Source of the DNA: a virus
Strand: one strand, 5' to 3'
IMG/VR virus record: IMGVR_UViG_3300037461_001787
Location: 1 to 64,000 of that record
Length of the DNA: 64,000 nt
A program made the translations under genes and the position numbers. Shown here in pieces: positions 993-64,000 of the stretch; positions within the stretch are counted from its first letter, which is position 1; the number at the start of each line of letters is the position of its first letter. The notes below the pieces were generated by a model. The model was not told where the DNA came from. It saw only the letters and a program-made list of their open reading frames with translations, and searched no databases.

Positions 993-2297
993 ATGAATGA
1001 AACGCACTGGGAGCGCGTGCAGCGCTCCATCGGGGTACTCCGTCTGCAGTTTGCTCGCCGGTTATCTAATCTAAAAGAAATGTCAGAAGCGGAGTTAGCG
1101 GTCTTGCTCCAGGTGCTGTGGGAGGAGATGGTTGCGGAGGCGAGAGTCGCTGCCTCGGCTCCGGCGGTGGCGTCTATTTCTCAGGGGGGTGTAGCCTACT
1201 ACATACCCAAATTTTCTGCGCTGTTGTACGAGTGGGTAACGATCGCGTTGAGGGGGTTGCCGCTATCGTATGTCGGATTGGTCTGCGCGCCAGAGGTCCG
1301 GCAATTCATTGAGAGTTATGCCCGGAACGCAGCAATAGCACCTAGCGCTCTGTCGTTTGCGTTGGTGGTCACTTACTTTATGGTCGCTTATGAGCGCGAG
1401 GGCAAGCGGACGTATGTGGTCTCACCGGGATTGGCAGAGCAGTTGCGGCACACGGAATTGCGCGGTCTATCTTGCGAGGATCTCCGGTTGCCATTTCCGG
1501 CGGTGTATATCGATGTCCCGGTGCAAGCTGACCTCAAAGTCTGGAACCATGATAGCGGTTGGCATCGGCTGCAGGCTATTTACATTGTGGAAGATCCGGA
1601 CATCCTGGGGGAAGCACAGCAGTTGGATTTTCTGGAATTGGAACGGGAGGCGTGGGGGCTCCAGCCGGGGCAATTGCTGCGTGGATGGAGGTTGATGTTG
1701 GTGGGCGAATGCAAGGATCCGGGCAATGAAGAAATGCTGGGCGATGATGCAGTCTATTACTATCGTGTGGCGTTACCGGATGGGTTGGCAGTGGAGGCAG
1801 CGATTGAGCAGACCCGTGCGAACGCTTATCGGGGATGCGCGGACGAGTTGGCGCGCGTGGCGGCGCTAGACCCCAGTGAGTCGTGGAAGCAGGTGTTCGC
1901 GTGGGTCATGAACCTGATGATGTATGTGATTTGCGTGGAGCCCAATGCGGAACGTTGGATGCTGAACAAAGAGGCGCGGCAGCTTTGGGAGAGGATCCAA
2001 AAGACGCCTAAGGGGAGCCCCAAACGAAAGCGGTTGCACGCGGAGTTGCAACAGCTGGATCCACGGTGGCGCTATTCGATTGGCCAAGGGATTGTGGTTC
2101 GGCGCGGACGAGAGCGCGCAGAGGCGCAGAGGGGCCAGGAGCGCGGGCCGATGGCGGTGGTCAGTTGGGTGGCGGGGCATTGGAAGCGCGTGGCGCATGG
2201 TCCGGGGCGTGCTCAGCGGCGGTGGCAGTTTATTGCGCCGTATAGGAGGGGCCCGGAAGGAATCAGTGAAATCTGGAAGCCGCACCATGCCGAATGA
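993..2297 (+). CDS. uncharacterised phage protein with C-terminal V(R/A)GHW(R/K)...GP...I.PY..GP motif
   Basis: Long ORF; C-terminal WVAGHWKRVAHGPGRAQRRWQFIAPYRRGP is a motif I recognise from many phage hypothetical proteins. Confidence 0.7.
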   Translation: MNETHWERVQRSIGVLRLQFARRLSNLKEMSEAELAVLLQVLWEEMVAEARVAASAPAVASISQGGVAYYIPKFSALLYEWVTIALRGLPLSYVGLVCAPEVRQFIESYARNAAIAPSALSFALVVTYFMVAYEREGKRTYVVSPGLAEQLRHTELRGLSCEDLRLPFPAVYIDVPVQADLKVWNHDSGWHRLQAIYIVEDPDILGEAQQLDFLELEREAWGLQPGQLLRGWRLMLVGECKDPGNEEMLGDDAVYYYRVALPDGLAVEAAIEQTRANAYRGCADELARVAALDPSESWKQVFAWVMNLMMYVICVEPNAERWMLNKEARQLWERIQKTPKGSPKRKRLHAELQQLDPRWRYSIGQGIVVRRGRERAEAQRGQERGPMAVVSWVAGHWKRVAHGPGRAQRRWQFIAPYRRGPEGISEIWKPHHAE

Positions 2298-2412
2298 CTT
2301 GTTTTTTTGGTGGTGGTGGGCTACAACCCTCGCGCACCTGTCGGTTCTTTTCCCTTCAATTTGCGATCGATGAGACCCAAATTAGTCGCGACGGGTGCAC
2401 TTTGGAGGCGCA

Positions 2413-2622
2413 ATGGATTGGCAGTGCGTGGAGCTGTCCGAGATTCCCCAGGCGTTAGCGGATGTCGAGCGCCGGATTGAGGCGGCTGAGGAATTGATTG
2501 TTGCGTTGTACGAGGTTATTGGCAAGCAGCAACGAATTCGAGAAGAATTGCGCGCTGAGTATCGGCGGGTAATTGCTATGGCGGCCAAAAAATATCTGGA
2601 ACGATTGGTGCGGTACGAGTAG
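2413..2622 (+). CDS. hypothetical coiled-coil protein
   Basis: GGAGG RBS with ATG 2413. Confidence 0.55.
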   Translation: MDWQCVELSEIPQALADVERRIEAAEELIVALYEVIGKQQRIREELRAEYRRVIAMAAKKYLERLVRYE

Positions 2623-2820: not shown

Positions 2821-2849
2821 TTGACATCTACGGCTTTTTGCCGTATATT
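2821..2849 (+). promoter_or_regulatory. sigma70-like promoter with palindromic operator (P2)
   Basis: TTGACA-17nt-TATATT; TACGGC-ttttt-GCCGTA at 2829-2845. Confidence 0.85.
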
Positions 2850-10014: not shown

Positions 10015-10079
10015 TCGAGTTGTTGCGCGGTTCTTTTTCCATTTGAAATTCCAGAAAAAATTGGGGGCTCTTTTCGCGC

Positions 10080-10108
10080 TTGACATATACGGCATAATGC
10101 CGTATTAT
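10080..10108 (+). promoter_or_regulatory. sigma70-like promoter with palindromic operator (P4)
   Basis: TTGACA-17nt-TATTAT; TACGGC-ataat-GCCGTA at 10088-10104. Confidence 0.85.
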
Positions 10109-10147
10109 GGGGGTATAGGGTCAAGCTGCGAGTGAGAGGAGATCGGC

Positions 10148-14321: not shown

Positions 14322-14393
14322 CCGGTGGGGGTTGTCTTTTCCGGGTTGGGCGCCGATACTGGCATCCAGAACCAGCTAAGAGGAGTGAACGAC

Positions 14394-15557
14394 ATGCCGG
14401 CGAACGTGGTCCATTCCGCGGAGCAAGAACGTTTGTGGGAAAAAGCCAAGGCCCAGGCCGAGGAGCAGGGACGGGCCAAGGATTGGCAGTACATCATGGG
14501 CATCTTCAAGCGTATGGGTGGGCTCGAAAAGAGCTATGTTGTCCCATCGCGTTTCAGGGCATCCACGGTACCCGGACAGGTGCCTAGTCGAGAGCGTTTG
14601 GCGGCGATGCGCGAGCAGCGTGATCTGGAGCAAATGCCCCGGCGGCCTGACCTCGTGCAGCTGTTGCAGAACACGGACCCGATGGGTTCTGCATCGAGCG
14701 TGGTTCGAGGTCTCGGTTTCGATGCGCGGGCTTCTGGAAGCTGGGAGCGGTTTCTGGAAAAGGCGGCGGCTTCTGCGCCCAATGAGCTGGTGCTGCGCCA
14801 GGCCGTTGTCGCGCAAGCGCGGGAAGACCATCTGCAACCGGAGCTGCGCCAGGCCATTCTGGAACGGGCGCTGTCTTTCTGGAGAACAATGCGCAAGTCG
14901 ATGGTGCAGGTGGTGACGGTTGATGAGCTGAAAAAGGCAGGACCCTACGCAAATGCGGGCATGCAAAAGGCGTCGCCTCCTGAGACATGGACGGTGGAGA
15001 TCGATTGCTCGCCAGCCGGCGCGCAGTCGCTTGTCAAGCTCATTGGGAAGGTCAAGCAATTGGGCAATCCAGGGCATTCGTTTGGCATCGTTCTCGACCC
15101 GGACAACGCCAAAGAGCAGGCGGGTTGGGATGGCGATGGGCCTGAGCGTATTTTCGAAATTCGGACACGCAAATCACAGCCGTTCCAGAAAAGCGATCCG
15201 CGTGGCGGCGCTTACCATCGCCGGGTCCCTCAAGAGGGCGGTGGTTATCGTTACATCTACGATCCGGAGAAGTATCAGGCTCGATCGGATGCGCATGTGG
15301 ATGGCCGCGAAGCGCGCAAAGCGTATCTGCATTCGCGGATCGCCCGCGAGGTTGAAGGCTGTGGGCTAGATGGTTGTGACCCGCAGATGGTGTTGGAAAA
15401 ATTTTCTGGAAAATTCTCAGCTGAGGAAATCAAGGAGGCGTTCAAGAGCGGTTGCGGCGGAAAGCTGGAATTCAAAAAGGGGCGGTTCTATGTTAGGGCT
15501 GGTGCCACTGAGGCCACCGCGAAGTCGGTACAGGGTAAGTTTTGCATAAGGAGATAA
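14394..15557 (+). CDS. putative head-associated multidomain protein with several x-x-K|S/A sites
   Basis: AGGAG RBS; lies between terminase and portal; LEKS, LEKA, MRKS, LKKA, MQKA and FQKS sites. Confidence 0.75.
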   Translation: MPANVVHSAEQERLWEKAKAQAEEQGRAKDWQYIMGIFKRMGGLEKSYVVPSRFRASTVPGQVPSRERLAAMREQRDLEQMPRRPDLVQLLQNTDPMGSASSVVRGLGFDARASGSWERFLEKAAASAPNELVLRQAVVAQAREDHLQPELRQAILERALSFWRTMRKSMVQVVTVDELKKAGPYANAGMQKASPPETWTVEIDCSPAGAQSLVKLIGKVKQLGNPGHSFGIVLDPDNAKEQAGWDGDGPERIFEIRTRKSQPFQKSDPRGGAYHRRVPQEGGGYRYIYDPEKYQARSDAHVDGREARKAYLHSRIAREVEGCGLDGCDPQMVLEKFSGKFSAEEIKEAFKSGCGGKLEFKKGRFYVRAGATEATAKSVQGKFCIRR

Positions 15558-15559
15558 GC

Positions 15560-19520: not shown

Positions 19521-19910
19521 ATGCGACTGAGGCACAAAGTTATCGTGAAGGTATCCGACGATGCCGACATGAAGGATTTGCTGTTTGCGACAGATGAGCA
19601 GCTCGCCGAGGTGATTATTGACAGTTGGACCAAATCGCTATCGGGTAAGGTTACTGTAGCGATGAACACTGCCGAGAATCTCTGCTTGGGCGATATCGCC
19701 TTGGTCAAAGGGATCTACCTCAAGGCCAACAAGGACGTTACGATCAAGCTCAATGGGAGCGCAGATCCGATCGTGCTCAAGCGCTCGGGGACCTCCACCA
19801 ATCATTTCGCCAAACTCTTTTTAGAAGCTGCCATCACCCAGGTCAATATTGCTGCGCCAGCGACAGAGGATGCGGCGATTGTTTACTGCATTTGGGGTGT
19901 GGATAGCTAA
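19521..19910 (+). CDS. hypothetical virion-associated beta-rich protein
   Basis: AAGGAG RBS; directly after the portal. Confidence 0.7.
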   Translation: MRLRHKVIVKVSDDADMKDLLFATDEQLAEVIIDSWTKSLSGKVTVAMNTAENLCLGDIALVKGIYLKANKDVTIKLNGSADPIVLKRSGTSTNHFAKLFLEAAITQVNIAAPATEDAAIVYCIWGVDS

Positions 19911-19935
19911 GCGCGCGCAGCGCAGGGAGATGTCG

Positions 19936-22900
19936 ATGCGCCTTGAGCTACAGGCTACTCCGGAAGAGATCCGGGAAAAGTCGGGTCAGTTGTTAGAGCG
20001 CTTGGGCGAGCTGTTGAGCGGCGACGTTCCAGAATTTACGGATGCGCTGGAAAAAGCGTTGCCGGCAAAAGAGCAAGAGCTGAAGTATCCAGTGCTGCGC
20101 GAGCTGGCGGCAAAGTCGCGTGAGTTGTACGCTCATCAGGTGGATCGCATGATCCGAGAGATTGCCGAGGTCATCGACGAGGCAGTGGACATCCAGAAAT
20201 CGATGGAAGCTGATTTTCTGGAAAAAGGTGGGCCGTATATAGGCCCCAAAGGCGGGAAGTGGGCTGACCCGCAGCACACCATCCATTGGACGGGCGATGA
20301 GTCCGAGCAGTCGCGGCAGATGGCCCAGCATTCAGGACCTCCTGAAGGGGTCAAGCCGCTACCCGACGAAGCGGCCAAGGCGTTGCTCATTTCCATGGGT
20401 GATCTGCTTTACGGCTTGCAGCATGGGCTGCACAACATCCAAGATGATTCTGGATTCAATCATTACGATTTTAGTTATTGGCACAGTGTCCGCGGAAATC
20501 TTTCTGGAATGCGCAAGATGCTCAAAAAGTACAAGGGGCAGATCGATTCGCATCTCGGATCCAAGGCATACTATGAGGCTGGCCTCCACCTGGTCGAAAA
20601 AACCACGGGGGTCAAAGTACAGCCCCAGTACCATGCGACCTTTGGTTCATTGATGCTGCCTTTGGATGGGTATTTCAAAGGTGACTTCAAACAGTATTGC
20701 AGTGCGGTGAAGGCGTATGGGGCGCAGTTCGACGGCAACAAGAAATGCTTTTTCATCCCCAAGCTCAAGCTCGCCGGTTTTGATTTTGCCGCGTACAAAG
20801 CGGACATGGCGAAATTCGGCATCGAGGTAGCCGATCCCATCGGGGTGCCAGCCAAGCCCAGTACGTCTGGGGAAGTTGCGATTCCGCATGCGGCTCCGTC
20901 TCCGTCTGCGCCCAAAAGCGTGGAAGAGATTATTTCTGGAATTCACTCCAACCATGTCAAGGACACGATCGTAGTGCGGTTGCGTGAGGATGGGATTTTT
21001 GAGTTTCACTCGCCTTACGCACCTGCGTTCAATGCGTTGTTTGCAAACAAGGGCGGGCAGCTTTCTGGAATTACCAAATACAATCCTATCACCCATGCGC
21101 GTGAGACCTTCGATCTCGATCTCACGGAAGAGGCCATTGAGAAACTCAAAGCGCTTTTCCCGAAGTGGAAGATTGTCACGCAGGGCGTGAAAGAAGCGCG
21201 GATCAAACGCGATCAGGAGATCGCGGAACTGCAAAAGCCTATTCCTGAAGTGCAGGAGAAGTTGGATCCGGCGTTCAAGCTGATGAGTTACCAGAATGAG
21301 GGCGTGCGTTTTCTGGATAAGGCAGATGGCAATGCACTTATCGGTGACGAAATGGGGTTGGGGAAAGCGGCGAGTGTGGATGAACGTATCCTCACGCCGC
21401 AAGGGTGGAAACGGTTCGGGGATTTGCAGGTGGGGGATGAGGTCATCGATCCTGAGACGGGAAAGGCTGCTCGGGTAGCGGGTGTCTACCCCCAAGGCAT
21501 GCGAGAAGTTTGGGAGCTTGCCACCAAGGACGGGGAGACCATTGAATGCGATGCAGAGCACCTCTGGCATGTTTACACTGCGATGGATCGCTACAGAGAG
21601 AACGGCGGGAAGGTGCTCACTACCGCCCAGCTTTTGGCGGAGGGGGTGCGCACGGGTCACGGTAAGGGGCAGTACCGCTGGTATCTGCCAGTAGCGGTGG
21701 CGCAGGAATTCGAGTTTCGGGGGGCGCTGCCAGTGCCTCCGTATGTGCTGGGGGTGCTCATCGGGGATGGAGCGATAGCGCATTCGGCAGTGGGGTGGAC
21801 GAAACCGGATGTAGAAATCGTCGATCGGGTAGCGTCCCTTCTCCCAGAAGGTTGTGCGGTTGCGCCGCATGAAGTGGCTCCAGATAAGTGCCCGACCTGG
21901 GGCATTTCTGGAATCGGGGGGAAGAACGCGATACTTGATGGGCTGAGGGAGCTGGGGTTGCAGGGATGCACGTCGCTGGAGAAGTTTATTCCAGAAAGAT
22001 ATTTATTCGCCTCGATTGAAGACCGCAAGCAATTGCTCGCAGGCCTGATGGACACCGATGGGGATACACCAGTAGGGGCAACGTGCATCTATAGTACCTC
22101 GTCCAAGCGGCTGGCAGAGGATGTGATTTTTCTCGCCCGGTCATTGGGGTGTATGGCTTCTCTTTCCACCAAGAAGGCTCCCCGCTACCGCCACAACGGA
22201 GAGGTGCGAATCGGCCAACCGAGCTACCGGGTCAATATTCGCGCAGCGTTCAATCCGTATTTTCTGGAACGTAAGGCTGAGCATTGGGAGGAGTCCAGTC
22301 TGGCGCGGCCAGTGGCAGACATTCGACGCACTGATCGGCAAGTGGAAATGCAGTGCATTGCCGTGGAATCAGTGAACAATACCTTTATCCTTCACGGCCA
22401 CGTCGTCACGCACAACACCATCCAGACGCTTGCCTGGGCGGCGAAGAACAACAAAAAGGTGCTGGTGGTTTGTCCGAAAGTTGTGCGTAAGAATTGGCTG
22501 GAAGAGGCCCATAAGTTTTTTCCTGAGCACTTCAAGGGTGCCGAGCTTGTTGCTGCACAGCTCAAGAAAGGGCAGGTGCCGGACCTTTCCGATGTCAACA
22601 TCGCCACGGTCAACTACGAGTCGCTTTCCAAGTTCGAAGAGGCGATCAAGGCAGCGGGATTCGACACGATCGTGATCGATGAAAGCCACCGGGCAAAAAA
22701 TCCGAAAGCGCAAGTGACGCAGAATCTCCAGAAAATCGGTGCAGGGATGAAGCACCATATTCTGCTTTCTGGAACGGCGATCAAAAACAAGAAGGAAGAG
22801 CTATTCACGCAGCTCGATATGGTCGCGCCGGGGAAATTTACCAAGAATGCGATCAAGACGGCTTCGATCGGCGGTCTGTGGCTGGACATGCATGCGTTCT

Positions 22901-27212: not shown

Positions 27213-30200
27213 ATGCTATTGACCCCCGAGCAGTTGCAGAAAATTTCGGCCATTGTGGAAAAGTACCACAACGCCTTTATCGTCTCAGCCATTGGGCCCG
27301 AGGCCGTTCCGCCTGAAATTTTGCAAGCGTTGGAGAAAGAGGGGCTCATCGAAGGGCATCTCAATTCGATTGAACAGGCTTATCTTTATGGCCAGATTTT
27401 GGGGATGATCCAAAACAACGCCACAGCCAAGATGGGATTCGATGCTTTCCAGAAATATCTGCGACAGCATCCGGTACCGCTCTCGGAGCCTGAGCAGCGG
27501 GCGGTGAAGTTTGCGCAGCTTCAGGCGGCGGGGTACATCAAAGGCCTGGGCAACAAGGTGAGCCAGACGACTGGGCAGTTGCTGATCAACGCGGATAAGG
27601 CGCTAGAAGCAAAGCTCCAGAAAATTGTGCGTGATAAAACCGCCGAGAATATCGCCAAGCGGGAGACGGCCAAGCAGCTGAAAACGGATCTCGGTTGGGC
27701 CAGTGAAGACTGGACCCGTGATTGGGACCGAATCGCAGTGACGGAAAAACAGAATTCCATGCAGTTCGGCATGGCTGATCATTTGGCGAGTCGCTTTGGC
27801 CCCAAGGGATTGGTGGCCAAGCGCACCATGCCCGACGCCTGCAAGCATTGCAAGCGGCTCTACGATGGACCCGACGGCAATCCGCGCATCTTCCCGCTGT
27901 CGGTGTTGCTCTCGAACGGCACCAACGTGGGCAAGAAGGTCAATGATTGGCAGGCGGTCATCGGAACGGTCCATCCCCACTGTGCGGTCATCGGGACGAT
28001 GGTGCAGACCCCGCATGGCGAGATTGCGATTGAGCGTTTGGCGCCGGGCGATAGTATTTTGACCCGCCACGGTGTTGGCGTGGTGAGCCACGCTTGGCGA
28101 TCGTGGTACGAGGGGCAGATTGTGGAGCTGACGCTTTCGACCGGGCGGGTGTTGCGGGTGACCCCCAATCACCTGCTATTTTGCATGCCCGAATGGCGCG
28201 AGGCAGGTTCGCTGAAAGCAGGGGGTGAGTTGCGCGAATTGACCGACAGCTCGATTGGGAAACTGTCCACTATACTCAACACGCGCAAGGTTCCAGCCGG
28301 TTTCGACAAATTCGATTCCGCGGCGGTTTTGCATGGCTTTGCTGCGAATGAGGTGCCAGTTACGGTCATCTATCTGGATGGTGAGTTTTATTTGCGTGAA
28401 GGCCCGATTGACATGGAGAATGTTGAGTGGGTTGCGGGTGACCGGCGAAAAGGCAAGGAGCTGCGGGTTGCGGAGCAACCTGCATTCCGTTTTCGTTTTC
28501 ATCCCACCACTGAGGGATTGCGCACGGGGGATCAAGTTTTCTCGCGAGTTTCGCTTTCGGCGCTAGGAAGCATAGGGTGCTTCCAGGAAGCTCTCATCAC
28601 TTTTTGTCCCGAGTTCTGGGGTGCACGCGATAGCGTAGCCACCTCCCGAGACCTCCAGCCTGCGGCTTATCGCTTGCACGGGGCGCAGCTTCTCAAAGTG
28701 CGGATGCAAGAGAGCGGGGATATTGAGTTTGATCCGGTAGGAGCGATCATCTCTGAATTCGGGCCCCATGATGCGGCCCAGTTCGTTCGCCCGGTCGCGA
28801 TTGCTGACGTTCGCGTGCTGGGCTACAAGGGCGTTGTTTACAATTTCACAGTTCCGGGAAGTCATACCTATGTGACCGAAGGCGTGATTTCGCACAATTG
28901 TCAATGTCAGCTCATCCGCGTACCGGATGGCTACGGCTTTGACGAACAAGGTGCGCTTGTTCCGGGCGGCCAAGGCGGCAAGGTGTACAAGAGCGAAGAG
29001 GCGCTTGCCCGGGCGTTGCTGCGCGAAGACGATCTCCAGAAATCGATTTCTGGAAAGGACCCTGTGATCGCGCTTTGGGAACTGCCCATCCACATCGAAA
29101 ACAAGGTGGGTACTGAGCGTATCTGGCATACCCCGGACGGGGGCACGGATTCGACTTTCATGCTTTGCGCCTACGGGGAGATCGTGGGCAGCGAAGGCGC
29201 TGATGGAGACCCGCTCGATGTTTTCATTGGCCCGGATCCCGATGCTGCGATGGTCTACATTATCGAGCAGCAAAATCCTGAAACGGGAATCTGGGATGAG
29301 CAGAAGTGCCTGATGGGCTTCTCCAACCAGGAGCAAGCCGAGGCGGCCTACCGGTTGCACTACAACCGGCCCGAGCGCTTCTACCTGCAAACCAATCCCA
29401 TGGTGCTTGACGCTTTTCAGCGTTGGGTGGGGATCAACCGTTTGGCGTCGGCCGAAGAGCGCCCGGCTGTACGGCTGGTCATTCCGTTGGGACCGAAGAT
29501 GGGGAAATCTCAAGTGCCGGCGGAAATGGGGGCTGCGGACTCCCCAGCCGGAAATCGCGCAGGCGGGCACGGCACTGCAACGAACTATCTGGTCGAGACG
29601 CCTAAGCGGCGCGTTCCAGAAAAAGGCAAAACTCCGGGCATCGATCCGACTGATTTGATCCACGATTGGACCGAAGATGAGGAAGTCGGAGACAATCTGA
29701 AGCGCGACAAGGAGGTCTACGACGTATCTGAGCCGCTGCGTAATGTCTATCCGATCCATCTTCCCGCTCAGGCAATCACCGGCCAGGATTCGGCGCGAGA
29801 AGGGACCGAAGAGCGCAGGCGGTACGTCATCGGCAATTGCGCGAAGACAGCGCTTCGCCCCCAGGATAAGGTCGAGCTGGAGAAGTCATTCGCCATGCAC
29901 GGGGTTATTGCGACGGGCCCGCGGGGAGGGAAGATCATTGGCTGGGATGGGCCCAATCCCATCTACTATCGAGAGGGGAAGGAGACCAATACCCCGGGCT
30001 GGATGCAGCGGTTGGTGAGCCACATGGGCGGCAAAATTGTTCCGCACCTTGAAAACCAAGATTTGATCGTGCTCAAGGTCGATCCCCAGCATGAGGGAGC
30101 GTTGGAGCAGATTCGCAAGCACTTCCAGGTTCAAAATCCGATTATCAAGGGCAAGCGCTACACCATTTTGGAAGTGAAAAAGACGGTGTTCGAACAGATG

Positions 30201-32084: not shown

Positions 32085-35000
32085 ATGCTTCCTATGACTA
32101 AATTTTATTTTCTGGAACCTGAACCATTGATCAAGGCCCTCATCAAGATGAAGCCGGTGAAGGTGCAGCTCGGAAGCTGGAAGGGCCTGACCATTATCGG
32201 TATTGGTCCCAGAAACGGGAAGATTGTGGGATACCGTAGTGATGGTAAGCCGATTTACGCTGGTTCTCATGCGGCAGAGCAGTTGGCTCTGATACAAAAA
32301 CAGAAACATACTTACACTCCCGCACAGCAAGATGTGGAACTGGTCAAGTGGCTCCAGGCGCTCGGGCTGCAGGGAGCGGTGGATGCCGAGCAGGTGCATC
32401 TGAGCAAAGAGGGAGCTACGTTGCTCCAGACTGCGTTCGGCGTGACGCCAGCGGCCCTCGGAGGGGGGAAGTGGGGAATTGGCAAGGCTCTACTACTTCC
32501 CCATCTAGGAGAGCCTCTAAAGCCCACTGAGGAGCATATCACGGGATGGGCAGCGCAGATGGCTGCGGGAGATCAGGATGAGGTTTTCCCACCTCTGCAC
32601 ACTTTGAAGGAAATACCTGCGGGGAAGTTTGTTGGCTCGCACAACAATCAGTTATTTTTGGACAAGAGTGGGAAAAAATGGGTATTCAAGCCTGCTGACC
32701 CTACTATTGCGCGAGCAGAGGAAGCTGCTTCCAGAATTGGGCGGTTGTTGCTGGGCGATCGCATTCCCGCTGCCAAATATGTGGATGTAAAAGGAAAAGG
32801 TGGGGTGCTCATCCAAGTTCTGGATGGGGAAGTATGGCAGGAATCGTCGAGCCAACATTCTGACCCACAGTTGTCCTACCTCAAAAAATACGCAGAGCAG
32901 GTGGTGCAGCATGAGGTGGTCGATTGGCTGATCAGCAATCATGATTCCCACGCGGGCAATTTTTTGGCCGACGGGGAGAAGCTGGTAGCCATCGACAAGG
33001 GGCAGGCGTGGAAATGGATTGGGAACGACGTGCTTGATCCAGCGTATAAAGGGAGCAACCCAAGTTATCAGATTTACAATAAATTTTGGGAATCGGTGAA
33101 GCAAGGGAAAATCGGATCCGTTGGGCTCGTGGAGGCCGTAGCTGAAATAGTGAATCGTGCGGAAAAGATTTCTCCCGAGCAGTTTGCGTTACTCGTAGCG
33201 CCTTATGTATCGACGTGGGCGGGTGGGAAGGATGCCGACCCACATGAGCGTCTCCAGAAAATGGTTTCCAGATTGACCAATCTGAGGGGCGACTTCGAGC
33301 AATTTTTGAGTTCACAGCTTCAAAAACCGATCACACTGCCTAAGCCATCGGCGGTGCAGGTGAATTGGGAAACTCCGCCGGTACAGCCGCTGGGGGAAGA
33401 AAAAGGCAAAGTAAAACAGGAAGAAAAGCCGCAACCAGTCCAATTGACGACGCCGGCGTCAGAAAGCCAGCCTATTTTGCAGGAAGTGGAACATACTCCC
33501 GTTTTGTCGGCCAAACCAGCGGCGGGTTGGCCGCTGACGAAAAAGGGTGCGAAGACGGTGCAGGTAACTGTGCACCATCCGGGGCAGGTGCCTCCCACCA
33601 ATTGGCCGGTGGGGACGCCTGGGCCCGCTATGCATCTTACTTGCGGGTACAAAGGGGCACAGTATTCCTTGATGGTCGGGGAGGACATGGCGGCCAAAAA
33701 GCCGATCTTCACGGTGACCTATCCCAACGGTGACAAGGCGGATTTTAGCTCGCTGAATGCGGCGGGAGATTCGCTCTATCTGTACAATAAGGGGCTGCCT
33801 CTCAATCTGACTGCGACTGAAAAAAAGAAGCAGGGCATCAGCTTGGGCAGCAAGGTCTTTCAGCTCAAGCTCTTTGAGCAGGAGTTGGCCGAAGCTTACG
33901 GGAAGAAGGATGAGCCGGTGCCGGTAGCGGTGGCGACCCCCGAGCAGCTCGAAGAGCAGAAGGTCATTGAGCCCGAGCAAAAGCAGGCGACGGCGTTCCA
34001 GTTGCTGACCACGGCACAGCCAGCAGGCACGGTGCTGTCGATGTACGATCCAGCGCTGCCGCAGGAAATCAAAGAGTTCACGCTTGCGCATTCTGGCAAG
34101 AATCAGTTGAGCGGGGATTGGGATTTGGCGCTCACGCCCGGGCAAGTGGTGATTGGCAAGCACGACTTTTTTGGAGGTCCGGTTATTTTTGCAGCGAGGT
34201 TGTCGAAGGAAGGTAAGCCCGAGCTTTGGGGTTGGTGGGAAGGAGTCGAAGGAGCGCCGCAAAGCGGCCAATGGACGGGCGCGACGGCAAAGGTATTTCT
34301 GGAAAGTTTGGGGTTGAAAAACAACCCCGCCCTCGCCCAGGCCAAAAAGGAGTACGAGCAGGCGGTGCAGTTTGAGGCATCGCATTCTGACCCTATTGGT
34401 TCTCCACCGGAGGTAGTGCTTCCAGAAAGCGCGACAGTTCCAGAAACCGCGCCGAAGTTCACGGCGGGACCGCTTGCCGCGGGCACAACGATCAAGGTCA
34501 AAAAGAAGGTTCCGGGATACGACAAAAAGCAAGAGGTCGTGCTCACCGCGCTGCAGAATGGCAAGTTGCTGGTCGAAATTCCGGGGCAAACCGCACAGAC
34601 TTTTGACACGCTTTCGGCTGCAAGTGATCATGTCTGGGTTGTCCAGAAAGGATACACCGATGCGGCAGATTACAAAGCTCAAAACAAAACTAATAAAGTA
34701 CCCTCTGGGGGTGGCTGGAAGTTTTGGGGTGTCAGCCCGACGACAGCAACAGTTGGCGCGGGCGATCAATTGGGTGCTGGAGCTGTTGCTGCTCCTTCTG
34801 TTGCTGGGAATGATCTACCAGCTGTTGGAGCACCCGCCGAAGTTCCTGCTCCCGCTGGAGTGACGGCTCCTGCAGAGGCCAAAGAACAGGGCAAGGTGCC
34901 GTTCGATGCAGCGCTTGGAGAAAAGGACAGCCAAGGCTGGCAGGCGTTGAAAACGGCAACTACCCCAGTGATTGATGCGTTGCCAGCGGGGACAGTTCTT

Positions 35001-43321: not shown

Positions 43322-43380
43322 CTGGAAGGGGTACCGGGTTTTGCGGAAATGCTGCTTTTCCTGGTCCCCTTTCCAGATTT
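43322..43380 (+). terminator. stem-loop after the capsid gene
   Basis: CTGGAAGGGG-T-ACCGGG pairs imperfectly with CCTGGT-CCCC-T-TTCCAG. Confidence 0.45.
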
Positions 43381-43398
43381 CCAGAAAGTGAGAAAAGC

Positions 43399-44335: not shown

Positions 44336-44382
44336 CGTTCCAGAAAAATCCAGAAAGCCCTTGAGGCTGCTAGGAGCATAGC

Positions 44383-56619: not shown

Positions 56620-58926
56620 ATGGCGACCAGCATTTTCTTCAACGGCAGGTTGATCAGCGTCCCGGGCAGCTACTCCCAGATCGATGCATCGGGATTAGAG
56701 TCGGTGGGCCTGGGCGCTTCTGGCATCATCGGTGTGATTGGCACGGCTGAAGGCGGGAAGCCTGCCTCGGCGATGACCGAGCCAAATGAATTCTTGCGGC
56801 TGACCAAACCGGAGAAAGGAAAGCAGTTGTTCCGCTCAGGTGATCTGCGCGAGGTGGCGGATATGCTGTTCGCACCTTCGAAGGATCCGGATATCCTGGC
56901 CGGCGCGCAAGAAGTGGTAGCCATGAAAGTGAACCCGGCTACCCAATCCGCAGCGACACTGATCAACAGCTACGGCGATTCGATCGCACTTTCATCGATC
57001 GACTACGGGGCTTTCACCGGGCAGATCAATGTGTCCATCGATGACGGCACAACGCAGGGCAAGCTCATTACCATCACGTTCGAGGATGTGGTTGAGGCCG
57101 GGGACGATATCGGCGGTAACGTATTTTGCAAATTGAAATACGTCAAGCCGACCAACGGCTGGGACACGATGACCTCGGAAGTGGAATCGAGCGGGGCCAT
57201 TGTGGCGAAGGCCACTCGCGCTCAGTTGGGGCTCGATGGCGACATCACCAGCCAGCTTTCCAGCGACACGCTGGTGGATATCGTCTCGGCATCTGCTGCC
57301 GACGTGGGGCTCTCGGCCATTGTCTATGGTCTCACTGCAGGTGGTGCGGCCCAGATCGAGACGCTGGTGCTCAATGGCACAACGGCGGTCAACGGTGCGC
57401 TGACCTTCAGCAAGGTGCTTGGCATCCGCATTATCGGCACCACGGTTGGCACGGTGACCCTGACCAAGCATACTGGTGGCGCGACGGTACTGACCGTCGC
57501 TGCCGGAGCAAACGCCACCAAGGGTTTGGGCAAGTTTGCCTCTGGCTACGTCGCCAATCTACCGGTGACCGCGGTTTCCAGTGGCGCCAGCACCAAACGG
57601 TTGCTGCTCATCGGATTGAGCACCTCCGGAGCGGTTCAGGTAGAAAAGCTGACGCTCACCGGCACCACTCCGGTGGTCGGCGCAGCAAACTTCTCCGAGC
57701 TGCAATATCTCGCGATGGGCGAGGTAGAAGCGGCGCAAACCATCACTCTTTCGGCCAATGCCGGACGAACTTCAATAGCGGTGCAATCGACGCTCCAGAA
57801 ATGCGCCGATTACTACAACGCCCGCTACGCCTCCAGCGCGGGATTTGTCTTTACGCTGGTCACGGGAAAGACGAGTTTTTCCCCCCAAAATCTGGACGTG
57901 ACCACAGGGGCTCAGGGGCCTGTGAGCTGTCTCTCCCCGGCAGAGCCCAGCTACTACGCGGACCTCTGGACTTGCATTGATTGGATCAACACGCATTCGC
58001 AATACGTCTCTGCGGCGAAGGCCTCTGGGGCCAAGGGTGGCGCTCCGGCGAACACCACCACTCCCACGTTCTTGGCTGGTGGTGGGGAAGGCACCACTCT
58101 CTTTTCGCATTGGCAAAACGCGCTGAACCTGCTCAAAAAGGTGCGCGTCAATTCCATCGTGGTATTGACCGGAGATCCGGCGGTGCATGCTGCGCTCGAT
58201 GCGCATTGCGCGTATATGTGCGGGATCGGGCGGAATGAACGCGACGGCTTCGTGGGTTTACTCAACGCGGGGCTCACGGACGTGGCAACCAAGACAGAAG
58301 CCAAAAGCCAAGCGGTGGATCTGAACACACGGCACATCCGCGCTTTCCCTCAGTCGATCGAGCGTTACAACACTGCAGGGGAGCGAGAAGATTTTCTTCC
58401 CTATTTTACCGCGGCGATTGCTGCGGGCATGCAAGCGGGCGCGCCTCCAGGCACGTCGCTGACGTTCAAGTACGCCAATGTCCTTGCGCTGCGCCAGGAC
58501 AGTAGCTGGAATCCAGTGGATGACGCTGAGGAGATGATCCAGGGCGGTCTTTGCTTTCTGGAAAACATCGAAGGCGTGGGCCGGCGGTTTGTGCGCAACG
58601 TGACAACCCACCTTTCTTCCGACAATCTTGCTTTCATCGAAGGGTCGGTGAATGCAGCGGTGAACTTCGCTTGCTTCAATTTTCGGACAAATATGGAGAT
58701 GGCGGTTGGCAAGCGCGGGTTTGCTGGCACCATCAATGCGGCCAAGGGAGTCGCGCTGAACGCGTTGGGGCTGTTGGTCGATTCCATCGTGTTGGTGGCT
58801 TGGCGGAGCTTGGGAATCGAATTGGCGGTTGATGTGCTCGATGTGGAAGTGGAGATAGCGCCCATCATCCCGGTCAATTTTGTCAAAAACACGATCCACC
58901 TGGTGACGATCCGCCAGACGACATAA
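56620..58926 (+). CDS. contractile tail sheath protein
   Basis: FNGR....PG.YS.ID, IG.AEGG.P, F.SG.L, LT.K...., PIIP.NF motifs. Confidence 0.92.
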   Translation: MATSIFFNGRLISVPGSYSQIDASGLESVGLGASGIIGVIGTAEGGKPASAMTEPNEFLRLTKPEKGKQLFRSGDLREVADMLFAPSKDPDILAGAQEVVAMKVNPATQSAATLINSYGDSIALSSIDYGAFTGQINVSIDDGTTQGKLITITFEDVVEAGDDIGGNVFCKLKYVKPTNGWDTMTSEVESSGAIVAKATRAQLGLDGDITSQLSSDTLVDIVSASAADVGLSAIVYGLTAGGAAQIETLVLNGTTAVNGALTFSKVLGIRIIGTTVGTVTLTKHTGGATVLTVAAGANATKGLGKFASGYVANLPVTAVSSGASTKRLLLIGLSTSGAVQVEKLTLTGTTPVVGAANFSELQYLAMGEVEAAQTITLSANAGRTSIAVQSTLQKCADYYNARYASSAGFVFTLVTGKTSFSPQNLDVTTGAQGPVSCLSPAEPSYYADLWTCIDWINTHSQYVSAAKASGAKGGAPANTTTPTFLAGGGEGTTLFSHWQNALNLLKKVRVNSIVVLTGDPAVHAALDAHCAYMCGIGRNERDGFVGLLNAGLTDVATKTEAKSQAVDLNTRHIRAFPQSIERYNTAGEREDFLPYFTAAIAAGMQAGAPPGTSLTFKYANVLALRQDSSWNPVDDAEEMIQGGLCFLENIEGVGRRFVRNVTTHLSSDNLAFIEGSVNAAVNFACFNFRTNMEMAVGKRGFAGTINAAKGVALNALGLLVDSIVLVAWRSLGIELAVDVLDVEVEIAPIIPVNFVKNTIHLVTIRQTT

Positions 58927-59468: not shown

Positions 59469-59532
59469 GAGGGATTGCTCTCTCCCAGCGCATCTCGTAT
59501 TCTCAGCGCAGACCCCAGGAAGGAGAGCGAGC

Positions 59533-60060
59533 ATGGCTGATAAGATTGGAATCCCCCCAGGTACGTATGAGAAGTTGACCAAACCGGAGCATCTTCGTTC
59601 CATGATTCCAGAGGAGTTGGAAACCATCAAGGAGGCCATTGGCCGCAGAATGGAAAGCTTGGCAGAAGGCGTTCCAGAAAACGAAAAGGAAGCTGACAAT
59701 CCACGATTGCAACGCGAGTATACTTTTGATTTTCGCTGGAAGGATGGACGGGGCAAAGTCTGGACAGGGAGCTTTACCAACCGCGTGCTCAGTATCCGTG
59801 ATCGGCAGTTGATGGGGATCATGCGTTCCAATTTAGGCGCGGGAATATCTCCAACGAATCTTGATGGGCTCACCGCTGAAATCAATCTGATGGTAGCGCA
59901 TCTATCTTTCAGTTTGGTTTCTCGGCCCAAGTGGGCTGAGGATTTGCTCGCGCTCGATGATGTCCGGCTGCTGCAAGAGATCTACACGGAGGTGGTCTCG
60001 CACGAGTCTACCTTTCTCGGATATGCGAAAAGTTCGCTATCGAGCGGAGCGGGAAGTTGA
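59533..60060 (+). CDS. tail assembly chaperone
   Basis: Between tube and tape measure; P.W pattern; AGGAG RBS. Confidence 0.75.
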   Translation: MADKIGIPPGTYEKLTKPEHLRSMIPEELETIKEAIGRRMESLAEGVPENEKEADNPRLQREYTFDFRWKDGRGKVWTGSFTNRVLSIRDRQLMGIMRSNLGAGISPTNLDGLTAEINLMVAHLSFSLVSRPKWAEDLLALDDVRLLQEIYTEVVSHESTFLGYAKSSLSSGAGS

Positions 60061-60370
60061 ATCGGGGCTGGCCGGACTAAAGCGCTGGTGGAGCGGGAAG
60101 TACAAGTTACCGCCCAATCATGCGCTATTTCTGGAACAGAGTGTGTCTGAGCTGAACCAGGAAATGATCGAGGATCTACTGACGCGCAAGCGCGAGATTC
60201 TTTCAGCGCTGGAAAACGACGAGTTGTCGATGAAAGAGCAGCAGGAGTTGAGCCGGCAGATGCGCGCGATATTGTCTGCGCTCGGCGACCCAGTTGAGAC
60301 GGAAGATGCGTTGGTTGATCAATGGGAGCGCGATCTGGAAGAAGGGCGCATACCTGATCTGGAGGCATAG
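60014..60370 (+). CDS. tail assembly chaperone, second part (probably reached by +1 frameshift)
   Basis: WW..KY.LPPNH..F motif; overlaps the first ORF in the +1 frame; no close RBS. Confidence 0.65.
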   Translation, partial: FSDMRKVRYRAEREVESGLAGLKRWWSGKYKLPPNHALFLEQSVSELNQEMIEDLLTRKREILSALENDELSMKEQQELSRQMRAILSALGDPVETEDALVDQWERDLEEGRIPDLEA

Positions 60371-60372
60371 CG

Positions 60373-62733
60373 ATGGCAGGCGAGATCCGTACCGGGGTAG
60401 TCATTGCCGCTGAAGCGCAGGGCTTTGATGAAGCGCTCCAGAAAATCCTCAAAGTCAATGAGTCAACGCTCAAGGGCATGAAGGAACAAGCCAAGAGCTA
60501 CGACGAAGCTCAGGCAAAGATTTTGGGACTTGAGGGCCAAATCGGAAAGCTCGCCAAAACCCAAGCCTCACTCTATGAATCGATGAGTGGGATCAAGGAC
60601 AAATCTTCTGCGGCCTACAAAGCTCTGGCCGAAAGCCTGAAGGACGTGCAGGGGCAGTCGGCAGATCTGGAAGGGGCGGTCAAAAATCTGGAAAAGGCCT
60701 ACGCCGCTGAAGCGCGTGCGGTGAAAGAATTGAACCGCGCGGAAGAGCAGTTGGCCAAGACGGAAGAACGGCGCCAGCAGAACGCTGCCAGAGAGCAAGA
60801 GCGCGAGGATCAGAAGCGCAGTCAAGCGGAACAGCAGGGCAAGTGGGCTTTCACCCAGGGCTTCGCGCAGACCGCAACCCCTTGGATGGCGCCATTGTTT
60901 CTGCAGCGCGGCCCAGGATTTTTGCGCCAAGCCGCGGGGCAGATGACTGGCGCTGCGGTACGCGGGGGGCTGCAGCGCGCCGGGGCTTTTGGGGGTGCAG
61001 TATTGCAAGCGCCATTTCAAGGCGCGCAAGGGTTAGCGAGCATGATGGGGGCGCTGCCCATCCCAGGCGCTGGAATTCTCGGCGGGCTGATGGGCACTGC
61101 GACCGGATATGCCGGGCGAGCGATGGAGTGGCATCGGCAACGGCTTGAAGCGCTCCCGTATATCGGCGGCGGGCTTGAGATGGGCCAAGGGCGCGGAACG
61201 TTGGATGCGCGAACCCAATCAATCCAGAAACAGTTCAATCTGGAATACAATGCCGCAGAGAAGACAGCGATTCGAGCGACAAGTGCTGCCCGAGCGTGGG
61301 ATAAAATTGGTGGAGCAGCTAGTCTTTTGCCCCTGAACATAAGCGGATCACTTCCAGAAAACATCGATCGGCTCGCAGGGAGAGGGCCTGGGTTTCGTGA
61401 TGCAAATAAAAGACTGCGGAGCGCCAAGCTTGCCGAGATAGAAGCCAGGAAAAAGTATCCCCTGGAATCATTGTTAGCACCCGTTCGCAAAAGAGCCGAG
61501 GTTGGGCTGGAAGCGGTGCGCGCAGAACGCGGGCAGCTCAACGCGCGATATCAAGAGCCTTACTACGCTGCTCAGCGCGAAGGCCTCCAGTTCGGCATGG
61601 CCAAAGATCAGGCGCTCCAAGCGATGACTGCAATCATTCGCGGAGGCGGTGGTGGCGGGCGCGAAATGCTGAGCCAAGGCATGCTCCAGACCGGATTTGC
61701 CGCGCAGACTCTTTTCGGGATCGGTCCTGAGACTTCTGGCGCGTTCCTGCAAGCGGGGCGTCGTGGAGGTATTGTTGGGGGTCCAGGGAGAGCCGACCAG
61801 CTGATGACGCAAGCGCTTGCTGATGGTCTCAAACTCGGGCTGGAAGGCAGTGAGCTAGTCGATTACATGCAGTCGATGGCCGAGGGCATCCAGCAATGGG
61901 AGACCACGGGTATCCCGATCGCTCCAGACGCCATCAAGGCCATGGCTACGAGCTTTTCGCAAGCGGGAATTTCTGGAACCCGGGCAGCACAGATGGCGCG
62001 TGGGGCGGCAGGTTATATCCAGAATATTGGGGCCCGGGGCCCGCAGGGCGGGCTTGATCTAATGCTGCTTAACAAGATGGGCGGTTACACTGGCGTGGGC
62101 GGTGCCGCGGAATATGAGAGAGCCGTGCTCCAGATGGAGGATCTGGGTGGAAAATTGCGGGAAGGTGGAGTAGGTGCAGTGGGAGCGGACAAAGGGTTGA
62201 GCGACACCATGCGCTCGATCATGGAGATGGGTGGAGGGGGCGCGACCGGCCGGTTTTTCTTGCGCAGTGTGCTCGGCAAACAGATGGGCATCCAGATGGG
62301 GCAGCGTGAAATAGGGTTACTGGAGAAGCAGCTCACCGGCGGGAAGCTCACTCCCGAAGAACAAAAGTACGTGGATGCGGAGGCCGCTCGGCGGGCTGAA
62401 GGAGAAGGGCGTGCAGGAATAGTCGGCACACCAGGAGGGCTTATCAAGACCGCAAAAGGTGCCGTTCCGGGAGATTTGCGCTCCCAGGCCGCTATCCAGA
62501 ATCAACAGATTGCCGCTGGCGAGCAGATGATTGGAATCGTGAACCGCATGGACAAAGCTGCAGTAGATCTCGTCAAAGCATTTGCCAATCTTGCTGGGGA
62601 TAGTGGGATCATCGCGGATTTGACCAAAAAGTTCGAAAATTTTGGAGAGGCAATCGAAAAGGCGACTGGACAGAGAGATGTAACTTTCGGTGACGTTTGG
62701 GAAGCTGGAAAACAAGCGTTGGGACTGAATTGA
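60373..62733 (+). CDS. tape measure protein
   Basis: Long Ala/Gly/Gln-rich helical ORF after the chaperones. Confidence 0.8.
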   Translation: MAGEIRTGVVIAAEAQGFDEALQKILKVNESTLKGMKEQAKSYDEAQAKILGLEGQIGKLAKTQASLYESMSGIKDKSSAAYKALAESLKDVQGQSADLEGAVKNLEKAYAAEARAVKELNRAEEQLAKTEERRQQNAAREQEREDQKRSQAEQQGKWAFTQGFAQTATPWMAPLFLQRGPGFLRQAAGQMTGAAVRGGLQRAGAFGGAVLQAPFQGAQGLASMMGALPIPGAGILGGLMGTATGYAGRAMEWHRQRLEALPYIGGGLEMGQGRGTLDARTQSIQKQFNLEYNAAEKTAIRATSAARAWDKIGGAASLLPLNISGSLPENIDRLAGRGPGFRDANKRLRSAKLAEIEARKKYPLESLLAPVRKRAEVGLEAVRAERGQLNARYQEPYYAAQREGLQFGMAKDQALQAMTAIIRGGGGGGREMLSQGMLQTGFAAQTLFGIGPETSGAFLQAGRRGGIVGGPGRADQLMTQALADGLKLGLEGSELVDYMQSMAEGIQQWETTGIPIAPDAIKAMATSFSQAGISGTRAAQMARGAAGYIQNIGARGPQGGLDLMLLNKMGGYTGVGGAAEYERAVLQMEDLGGKLREGGVGAVGADKGLSDTMRSIMEMGGGGATGRFFLRSVLGKQMGIQMGQREIGLLEKQLTGGKLTPEEQKYVDAEAARRAEGEGRAGIVGTPGGLIKTAKGAVPGDLRSQAAIQNQQIAAGEQMIGIVNRMDKAAVDLVKAFANLAGDSGIIADLTKKFENFGEAIEKATGQRDVTFGDVWEAGKQALGLN

Positions 62734-62734
62734 C

Positions 62735-64000
62735 ATGGCCAACGTTTATAAAACTGGATATCAAGGCAGTGAGACCAGCTGGGTGGAGGTCATTCTTTAC
62801 TCGCATGGCGATGATCCGTTGGTCATGCTGCCGGATGGAATGGGCCGATATCCATTTTCTGGAAAACGCGCAGACTCAAGGCACCCATCGCTGGTCTCGG
62901 TATCGACGCAAAAGATGCTTGGAGCTGCGAGCGGCTCTTTTACGATCGACATCAAACCGTCGCTTGCGGCAGCGAACCTTTTTCAACATATCTGCGATGA
63001 CGACTGGGTGGACATTGTTTTCTACCGCCACTCTCAGCCGTGGCATGTGATGCGCGGGTTGATTGACGAAATTAGACGCAACCGTTCGGTGGGGGGCTCT
63101 GGGGCGACAACGCGAAGCTACACGCTCACGGGGCGGGATTTTGCCAAGATTTGGGAGATCACCCCGGTGTGGTTTTCACCTTGTGGTGATAAGGACATGG
63201 TTTCTGATGCGTGGGCTACGATGATTTTTCAAGCGATCCCGAGTTTGCGCGGAACGCCGCCGGAGGCAGTCAAAGCGTTTCTCTGGAATTTTATGGAGGC
63301 AGTGACGGTCACTGCGGGGGTCAATTGGGAGATGCCTGCAGGCATGCCCAATGGGGGTGGATCATTTTTGAAATGGGTGCAGTTCAATGACAATCACTAC
63401 TATAACACCCCTGCGCGAAAGTCTTTCAATCCAAATTTTCTGGACCCGAATAACACTCTTTGGGCGACGGCACAACAGCATGCTGATCCAGCGTTTGTTG
63501 AGGTCTACGCGGACATGCTGCCGGATGGCGGGCCATTTGATGCGCGCTTGCAATCGGGGGAACCCCTTGCTCCAAAAGATGCGCGAATGACTGTGGTGGT
63601 GCGCGATCGGCCTTTTCCTGTGGTGGACCCATTGATCGATTCCTGGCCGATCAGTTGGGACGCGGTGCCGCAGTTCACGGTGTTTCGACAGCAAATCGTC
63701 ACTGACAATGTGGGGCGCTCGGGATTGGAGCGATTCAATGCTTTCTTTGTCGCTAGTCAGCTTCATCAAGAGGCTTTTGGCCAAAATTCACTCAACATTC
63801 TCACTCCGCTGGTAGACTTCCAGTCGCTGCATCGGCATGGGTTGCGACGTTTTGATGTGCAGTCTTCGATGAGCCCTGATCAGCTCGACTTCTCCAAACT
63901 TTGTGAACAACAGCGGCGAATTGCAAAAGATTGGCATTGTTTGAATCCATACTTTTTATCAGGAACCATCAATCTTGGTATTGGGAGACCGGATATCAAG
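62735..64000 (+). CDS. baseplate hub-like protein (3'-truncated by the window end)
   Basis: Reads MANVYKTG...SVSTQK...SGSFTI...DDWVDI...MRGLIDEIRR...TLTGRDFAK; follows the tape measure gene; absent from the ORF track, consistent with no stop codon in the window. Confidence 0.7.
   Translation, partial: MANVYKTGYQGSETSWVEVILYSHGDDPLVMLPDGMGRYPFSGKRADSRHPSLVSVSTQKMLGAASGSFTIDIKPSLAAANLFQHICDDDWVDIVFYRHSQPWHVMRGLIDEIRRNRSVGGSGATTRSYTLTGRDFAKIWEITPVWFSPCGDKDMVSDAWATMIFQAIPSLRGTPPEAVKAFLWNFMEAVTVTAGVNWEMPAGMPNGGGSFLKWVQFNDNHYYNTPARKSFNPNFLDPNNTLWATAQQHADPAFVEVYADMLPDGGPFDARLQSGEPLAPKDARMTVVVRDRPFPVVDPLIDSWPISWDAVPQFTVFRQQIVTDNVGRSGLERFNAFFVASQLHQEAFGQNSLNILTPLVDFQSLHRHGLRRFDVQSSMSPDQLDFSKLCEQQRRIAKDWHCLNPYFLSGTINLGIGRPDIK

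Follow-up and report, generated by a model that had tools for sequence, protein, structure and literature searches.

Hyper-abundant genome words are known in a few groups of bacteria, and dispersed repressor sites are known in one group of temperate mycobacteriophages. We know of no phage described to date in which ∼1% of the genome is made up of ∼110 selected copies of a 9-mer and whose relatives carry step-wise different words. Here we analyze such a word, TTCCAGAAA, in the phage of IMG/VR record IMGVR_UViG_3300037461_001787, which comes from a wetland metagenome. The stretch under analysis (the window) comprises positions 1 to 64,000 of this record and is the first 64 kb of the phage's whole genome (G000; 109,277 bp, rated 100% complete). 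An earlier reading of the window from its letters alone (the sequence-only reading) had drawn attention to an iterated octamer that forms part of this word.

The DNA uptake sequences (DUS) of the Neisseriaceae and the uptake signal sequences (USS) of the Pasteurellaceae are asymmetric words that occur about once per kb, ∼100-fold enriched, on both strands and in all frames; they are conserved at orthologous places and form lineage dialects around a shared core, which co-evolve with a receptor protein (PMC3630211, PMC3868556). The phage word resembles them in its density (1.02 per kb), its copy number (112 against ∼1.5 expected), its presence on both strands and within genes, and its dialects with a core. 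Unlike DUS and USS, which belong to bacterial chromosomes and to a competence pilin such as ComP, it is carried by a phage with terminase, portal and capsid, in which no competence protein is apparent.

HIP1 (GCGATCGC) is an octamer found about once per kb and conserved beyond neutral expectation by an orthologous-site test (PMC5861425). Cyanobacterial lineages carry replacement words for HIP1 that are tied to matching methyltransferases (PMC4390886). Orthologous sites are likewise kept in the phage (62% against 5.2%, see below), and some of its relatives iterate a GC-framed palindrome, GCTCGAGC. HIP1 is palindromic, bacterial, quasi-periodic and accompanied by matching methyltransferases, whereas TTCCAGAAA is asymmetric and randomly spaced, with no methyltransferase detected.

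The nearest phage system is that of the stoperators of Cluster A mycobacteriophages, in which an asymmetric word of ∼13 bp occurs at many sites of the phage's own genome and is bound by the repressor as a monomer (PMC9283540). The present word shares with stoperators the many asymmetric sites over the phage's own genome and the variants that follow phage phylogeny. Stoperators reportedly number roughly 24–36 per genome (∼0.5 per kb), and word and repressor are said to co-evolve into subcluster-specific variants. Their location is mainly in short gaps between genes, their orientation follows that of transcription, and they serve to stop transcription in the lysogen. The word described here, in contrast, has more than 80% of its G000 sites within genes, is randomly oriented, reaches a copy number several times higher and occurs in a phage that gives no temperate sign.

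Chi (RecBCD/AddAB) and the FtsK-orienting polar sequences (KOPS), both read by DNA translocators, are also short, asymmetric, over-represented and species-specific words, and the reverse complements of several phage dialects contain CTGG or GCTGG, as does Escherichia coli Chi (GCTGGTGG). Both are polar relative to replication and enriched a few-fold. The phage word is without polarity and is enriched 70–170-fold.

Results

The repeated unit and its enrichment

Exact copies of the octamer TTCCAGAA and its reverse complement TTCTGGAA were counted in the window. There are 81 (35 on the + strand and 46 on the − strand), dispersed over 1630..62864, as compared with 2.5 ± 1.7 and a maximum of 7 in 100 shuffles of the window that preserved dinucleotides. 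The manual count of about 80 in the sequence-only reading was thus accurate, and the positions that it listed are correct within a few bases, except for 34430, which is off by ∼10 (the real copies are at 34420 and 34438), and 62837, which is off by 20 (62857). Its description of a near-palindrome flanked on either side by A/T runs has to be replaced. The true unit is an oriented, asymmetric 9-mer, TTCCAGAAA: the octamer is followed by A in 68 of the 81 window copies, yielding 68 full 9-mers, and the base 5′ of it is T in 21 of 81, i.e. there is no preference for T. Counts of single-base neighbors indicate that the inner TCCAGA is near-invariant, whereas variants at word positions 1, 2, 8 and 9 are tolerated and are each enriched 5–15 times.

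When all k-mers were ranked against a second-order Markov null, TTCCAGAAA, TCCAGAAA and TTCCAGAA came out on top by far (z 40–55). The whole of G000 holds 112 copies of the 9-mer (55 on + and 57 on −, where 1.2–1.7 are expected) and 135 of the octamer. The 9-mer is therefore enriched ∼70-fold, with about one copy per 2 kb per strand, and the TCCAGA core occurs at about 2.8 per kb. Over-representation on this scale is the opposite of the avoidance expected for targets of restriction-modification systems. Overall, enrichment is put at 70–170-fold; genomes covered with such a word throughout are referred to below as painted.

Distribution over genes and strands

Coding copies of TTCCAGAAA number 91, against 4.7 ± 2.1 (maximum 10) after codon shuffling that kept proteins and codon usage. 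The argument of the sequence-only reading that codon or peptide bias is insufficient has accordingly survived the protein-preserving shuffle that it had itself proposed. All six frames and both strands are used, also as it had stated, with an uneven distribution over the frames (20/22/9 on the + strand and 5/26/30 on the − strand). The peptides encoded are FQK, VPE, xSRK, FWK, FLE and ISG, and the scarcest frames are those requiring Trp or Ser-Arg. In the window, the mean density is one octamer per 790 bp and the spacing is near exponential (coefficient of variation 0.98), i.e. without periodicity. Sites are spread evenly along genes, with no excess at gene starts or ends. No polarity of orientation was detected along G000, where the cumulative walk stays within permutations (p = 0.94), and the corresponding walks in four painted relatives described below (G011, G016, G017 and G020) are not significant against permutations either. 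The check for spacing and strand bias that had been suggested therefore returned neither periodicity nor bias.

About 95 of the 96 genes called in G000 by codon usage lie on the + strand. Equal numbers of the word on the two strands, despite this arrangement, indicate a signal in double-stranded DNA; with transcription running one way an RNA signal would be strand-specific, which the word is not. The suspicion of an assembly artefact was also followed up and is negative, because the identical word stands at orthologous positions in relatives that were assembled independently from other samples. Frame use, the codon shuffle and the selection on sites described next all support what had been proposed, namely that the word is a genome-wide signal at the level of DNA and not a consequence of codon or peptide bias.

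Conservation and turnover of sites

A scan of IMG/VR for paired word copies identified G011 (IMGVR_UViG_3300036979_001044), a 96.8-kb contig that is collinear with the whole of G000, has 76 proteins in common with it at 50–86% identity, and carries 105 copies of the same 9-mer (1.3 expected). A codon alignment of 78.9 kb puts the identity of the two genomes at 65.7%. Of 72 alignable G000 sites, 45 (62%) are identical in G011, as against 5.2% of random 9-mers; in the reverse comparison, 43 of 82 G011 sites are identical in G000. The footprint of conservation is exactly 9 bp, with an identity of 0.79 inside it and 0.655 in the flanks, the latter equal to the genome average. Third codon positions are 0.72 identical within the word and 0.44 in the flanks.

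The remaining sites turn over in an all-or-none manner. Twenty-seven of the 72 are lineage-specific, and non-identical counterparts differ at ∼5 of 9 bases. Counterparts with one or two mismatches make up 4 of 72, although 37% would be expected for random 9-mers. Amino-acid differences per codon amount to 0.62 at lineage-specific sites, 0.33 in flanks and 0.06 at shared sites. Sites are thus either kept intact or gained and lost whole, which argues for purifying selection together with a directional process of gain, and on the evidence of this alignment the word sites are held in place by selection. Note that IMG/VR classes G011 as a provirus, yet the contig is collinear with the window phage from end to end and has no host flank.

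Dialects among related phages

Relatives were gathered by means of their terminase and capsid proteins, yielding 44 capsid loci in IMG/VR that are 45–90% identical. The enrichment that the sequence-only reading had suggested looking for in related phages is present, each lineage having its own dialect; this is the strongest fact of the analysis and one that the window by itself could not have revealed. The lineage words are TTCCAGAAA, TCCGGAAA, TCCAGMAATT, TCCAGACT, TGCGGAAT and GACGACAATC, each of them found on both strands. The clade nearest to the window phage (capsid identity at least 85%) is painted throughout with TTCCAGAAA. G016 (110 kb, 64% GC) carries TCCGGAA(A) 228 times against 19 expected, and G017 (106 kb, 52% GC) carries the two forms of TCCAG[A/C]AATT 36 and 28 times against ∼0.5 expected for each. 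In G001 and two others the word is TCCAGACT, with 33 copies in 14 kb. G002 (109 kb, with terminal repeats) uses a looser word, TCCAGC[A/T][A/T], for which counts of 50 and 49 stand against 3.6 and 6.5 expected. G018 (IMGVR_UViG_3300028840_002420; 113 kb) carries TGCGGAAT and TTGCGGAA (58 and 57 copies against 3.4 and 4.3 expected). Most extreme of all is G020 (IMGVR_UViG_3300025133_000099; 63.5 kb, capsid 45% identical), whose dialect is the 10-mer GACGACAATC, at 58 copies against 0.3 expected.

The dialects are arranged around shared cores, TCCAG with a variable 3′ end in G000, G001, G002 and G017, TCCGG in G016 and TGCGG in G018, and the words of neighboring lineages lie one step apart (position 5 of the 9-mer goes from A to G, position 3 from C to G, or the 3′ tail is altered). 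A quick tree built from capsid proteins groups the TTCCAGAAA phages in one clade, and the phages with TCCGGAA and TCCAGAA are adjacent. Of 37 sites in G002 that are orthologous to those of G000, 5 have a TCCAG core between altered flanks, compared with 0.34% of random positions. The word TCCAGAAA recurs unchanged in relatives ranging from 47% to 62% GC, and the family as a whole spans 44–67% GC. As phage GC content usually tracks that of the host, the former range may point to different hosts, and these comparisons suggest that the word is a trait of the phage family and not of one host. Low-GC viral contigs with a local enrichment of CTGGA were also considered and rejected, since these contigs are not painted as a whole and the enrichment is an ascertainment effect.

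G018 also contains 76 sites of the palindrome GCTCGAGC (9 expected), so that this one phage seemingly has two word systems, the asymmetric TGCGGAAT and the palindromic GCTCGAGC; the palindrome is iterated in G019, G003 and L284 as well. A long tandem peptide repeat of the GYPQQ type lies at 61,440–61,750 of G018, in an open frame of 541 amino acids (60,166–61,788) downstream of the gene for a DUF2924 protein described below. This repeat adds ∼20 to the G018 count of the TCCGCA core and constitutes the densest cluster of that genome (9 cores).

A candidate reader of the word

Cores are packed most densely in G000 within a 79-bp spacer (92,435–92,513, beyond the window), which ends at the ribosome-binding site of the gene at 92,514–93,587. 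It consists of TCTGGAttTCTGGA, 30 bp, and TCCAGAaaaatTCCAGAaagga, that is, two sites facing two. All four cores are kept in the same spacer of G011, with DNA between them that is unrelated to that of G000. The spacer of G017 holds an inverted pair and that of G016 its own dialect, TCCGGAAAA.

The gene product has a Cys-rich zinc-ribbon head, a linker of 100–150 residues that is rich in Lys, Ala and Pro and resembles the tails of histone H1, and a C-terminal DUF2924 domain (E 5e-9, above the Pfam cut-off). Homologues with the same architecture were found in 7 of 7 further complete or near-complete genomes (G011, G002, G016, G017, G018, G019 and G020); the blanks for DUF2924 among unpainted relatives carry no weight, as these contigs are 33–59% complete. 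The domain was modeled with AlphaFold (predicted local distance difference test score, 79) and compared with known structures by exhaustive alignment. The best matches were CcrM (C-terminal domain, bound to DNA; Z 5.2), MPND (SAND-like domain; Z 5.1) and GMEB1 (SAND domain; Z 3.4), and these weak matches may point towards DNA binding. The literature contains passing mentions of DUF2924, and no functional study of it was found. This H1-like DUF2924 protein is the best candidate reader that we can name, a tentative assignment based on its predicted fold and on the cluster that precedes its gene.

Two other candidates were set aside. The sequence-only reading had put forward a RAMA-like domain as a binder, but no DUF2924/RAMA-like domain was found in the 2443-aa protein of the window (hhalign probability 0.1%; no Pfam match). 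The gene next upstream of the DUF2924 gene, on the other side of the quartet (91,886–92,434), is conserved in position and has no Pfam match in G000; its counterpart in G018 (58,207–58,674) gives sub-threshold matches to a helix-turn-helix and to sigma-70 region 4 (E 0.03), and on such matches it is not yet credible as an alternative reader. We also observed that G018 (59,473–59,712) and G019 (37,053–37,292) encode DUF2924 halves in swapped order, which looks like a circular permutation, the W.G..Y.SL...NWSG.KFF part preceding the L.PG..L.R...G...V.V part.

Carrier genome and individual sites

Pfam matches and the capsid comparison assign a large terminase, a portal and a capsid protein to the window phage. 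Its replication genes encode a family A DNA polymerase, a DnaB-like helicase, a primase and a clamp, and its recombination genes a UvsX/RecA-like recombinase and SbcC-like and RuvC-like nucleases; there are also two intein-bearing SNF2 helicases. On the + strand G strongly outnumbers C (skew 0.07–0.26, with peaks at both genome ends). G000 is apparently a large phage of virulent life style. It belongs to a family with genomes of ∼100–113 kb that is without a cultured member, the closest cultured phages being SPO1/SP-10-like Herelleviridae with a capsid protein merely 39% identical.

No methyltransferase of the N6/N4, C5 or D12 type (PF01555, PF00145, PF02086) was found in six frames of the complete genome, and neither a methyltransferase nor Vsr is among the Pfam matches of 95 called proteins. 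As to other words in G000, the counts are 734 for GATC and 72 for CGATCG, ATCGAT/CATCGA is ∼2-fold over-represented, CTAG is scarce (75 copies), and HIP1 has 5 copies, which is no enrichment.

Several copies in the window have a particular setting. A single intergenic copy (10049..10057, +) is followed ∼35 bp downstream by a sigma-70-like promoter, TTGACA-N17-TATTAT, which precedes gene 10148–10948. The promoter regions at 2790–2878 and 10085–10147 are near-identical, TTGACAt(a/c)tacggc...gccgTAT(A)TTAT, and in both the −35 and −10 boxes enclose an inverted repeat, acggc...gccgt. The tandem pair TCCAGAttTCCAGAAA (43372..43387, +) is directly upstream of the start of gene 43399–44013, and another, TTCCAGAAAAATCCAGAAAG (44338..44357, +), with starts 10 bp or about one helical turn apart, is upstream of gene 44383–44724. 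Two direct pairs were found within genes, one of 9-mers with 9 bp between them in the 2443-aa gene (34420..34446, +) and one with starts 20 bp apart in gene 14325–15557 (14732..14759, −); the latter gene is the richest in the motif, with 7 TCCAGAA cores against 2.2 expected. An inverted pair makes up the perfect 20-bp palindrome TCCAGAAATCGATTTCTGGA (29035..29055, both strands) within the coding sequence 27213–31553. This sequence encodes a 1446-aa protein in which an InPase domain is joined to a PolyA_pol nucleotidyltransferase head, and which has an intein (Hint/Intein_splicing).

Two further copies, at 21906 (−) and 21989 (+), lie at the LAGLIDADG/Hom_end part (21906..21996; Hom_end residues 714–797) of the intein that interrupts the SNF2 helicase gene at 19849–25371. 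The sequence-only reading had taken copies within an intein as a hint that the word is still being generated. Both are identical at the orthologous place in G011; conservation at 66% nucleotide identity implies that they are old, and they give no sign of ongoing generation. Turnover is instead apparent from the 27 lineage-specific sites among 72. More inteins beyond the window are suggested, at the level of the gene set, by matches to Hom_end_hint/LAGLIDADG among genes at 56–85 kb of G000, including a ResIII/Helicase_C helicase, and to Hint_2/Intein_splicing beyond 85 kb.

Discussion

The explanation that we favor, while holding it provisionally, is that the word may be a docking site for a phage-encoded, sequence-specific DNA-binding protein that marks the phage genome. 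Words that extend over the whole family and change step-wise are explained more simply by a reader that travels with the phage. Among the options listed in the sequence-only reading, a site for a phage nucleoid-type protein and an element of the HIP1/DUS kind remain the leading ones.

Under such a scheme the word would be written about once per kb into both strands and selection would keep the copies, so that a phage protein could mark or coat phage DNA over its whole length. The DUF2924 domain might anchor at the word while the basic linker covers neighboring DNA, and the protein might regulate its own gene through the four sites just upstream. Possible purposes are telling phage from host DNA, compaction, and shielding from nucleases or from translocating defense enzymes. 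The specificity of the protein and ∼100 sites would drift together, giving rise to lineage dialects. Put more boldly, and on present evidence doubtfully, this would amount to a sequence-indexed phage chromatin, in which an H1-like protein docks with its DUF2924 (SAND/RAMA-like) head at a private word, self is told from host, and the joint evolution of word and reader leads to dialects that exclude one another. Binding of the word by a protein, the identity of this protein as the DUF2924 protein, and the purpose of the coating are steps that we infer.

A number of points weigh against a docking site and against this protein as its reader. Every link between protein and word is circumstantial. 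No clear copy of its own word is present upstream of the DUF2924 gene in G002, G018 or G019; a density of ∼2.8 cores per kb makes it unremarkable for a given gene to be preceded by one; and G011, which shares the quartet, is not independent of G000. Z scores of about 5 fall in the range under 8 in which, as the alignment tool warns, a match can be a common arrangement, and a Foldseek search of the PDB with the DUF2924 model gave no significant match. The reader might instead be another protein of the phage, one of the host, or an enzyme of recombination or repair. Finally, the sites could owe their conservation to biased conversion and not to selection for binding.

The strongest competitor, which we consider possible but on balance unlikely, is a signal for recombination or repair that spreads by molecular drive, the phage machinery favoring DNA that bears the word so that near-matches are converted and matches kept. 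As with DUS/USS and HIP1 (PMC3630211, PMC5861425, PMC4390886), whose signature these features are, the word has a density of ∼1 per kb, is enriched 70–170-fold, uses both strands and every frame, and has dialects that share a core. The differences at ∼5 of 9 positions of lineage-specific sites, together with their amino-acid changes (0.62 against 0.33), speak for a directional process, and the phage encodes UvsX-like, SbcC-like and RuvC-like proteins. However, these enzymes have no known component that reads sequence, G000 has no detected methyltransferase or Vsr, signals of the Chi/KOPS type are polar where the word is not, and the conserved quartet in front of the DUF2924 gene would be left unexplained.

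It is less likely that the word is a target of sequence-specific modification, for example methylation, by a host enzyme or an unrecognized phage enzyme, and that it serves strand discrimination, protection or self-marking. The dialects do look like recognition sequences, being asymmetric 7–9-mers or palindromes (TCCGGA in G016 and GCTCGAGC in G018, G019 and G003). HIP1-type words accompany matching methyltransferases (PMC4390886), and the domain model of the candidate reader weakly resembles the C-terminal DNA-binding domain of the methyltransferase CcrM. The failure to find a methyltransferase in any frame of the complete genome weakens the proposal of the sequence-only reading in so far as the mark would be written by the phage, and a host enzyme fails to explain words that track phage phylogeny although the hosts differ widely in GC content.

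We think it improbable that the word belongs to the host, i.e. that a painted host genome (with an uptake sequence, Chi or a HIP-like word) is mimicked by the phage or was the source from which it was inherited. Chi, DUS/USS and HIP1 are all features of host genomes, and phages can gain from the self-marks of their hosts. The sequence-only reading had suggested looking for the enrichment in candidate hosts. When 185,579 species genomes were scanned for two 9-mer copies within 30 bp, none of the first 120 bacterial or archaeal matches listed (8-kb loci) was painted, and the best five genomes among them have 62–182 copies in 1.4–7.4 Mb, corresponding to 0.01–0.07 per kb against 1.0 in the phage. 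Step-wise words over 44–67% GC would, moreover, need many unrelated hosts with this rare feature.

More improbable still is a start site preferred by a DnaG-type primase, or by another replication factor that reads single-stranded DNA, with spacing of Okazaki length on each strand. One 9-mer per ∼2 kb per strand and an asymmetric word are as expected for single-strand reading, the phage has its own primase and DnaB-like helicase, and CTG, the start trinucleotide of E. coli DnaG, is present in the reverse complement of the word. Known DnaG-type primases, on the other hand, read 3 bases and not 9, any 9-mer holds seven trinucleotides, which makes the CTG match weak, and the inverted conserved quartet in the promoter-proximal spacer would again be left unexplained.

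Codon usage, recurrent peptides, repeats and assembly artefacts are refuted as the source of the enrichment, for while some frames are favored (FQK, VPE, FLE, ISG) and part of the G018 core count comes from a tandem peptide repeat, 91 copies stand against 4.7 after codon shuffling, all six frames and both strands are used with dispersed exponential spacing, the 9-bp footprint includes third codon positions, and independent assemblies agree.

A literature search for the word itself returned primers only, and broader searches on phage motifs and on stoperators gave nothing relevant. The word represents strong selection at the DNA level inside phage genes, enough to alter amino acids, and in this family nature has paired variants of the word with variants of the proteins, a set from which the reader and the rules that govern its specificity may be found. 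The dialects could also be used as lineage barcodes in metagenomes. If the word, as a docking site for a phage protein, does mark phage DNA as self, this would be a new principle, the self-recognition of a virus by sequence without base modification, and the dialects of different phage lineages would be mutually exclusive, much as uptake-sequence dialects isolate Neisseria species.

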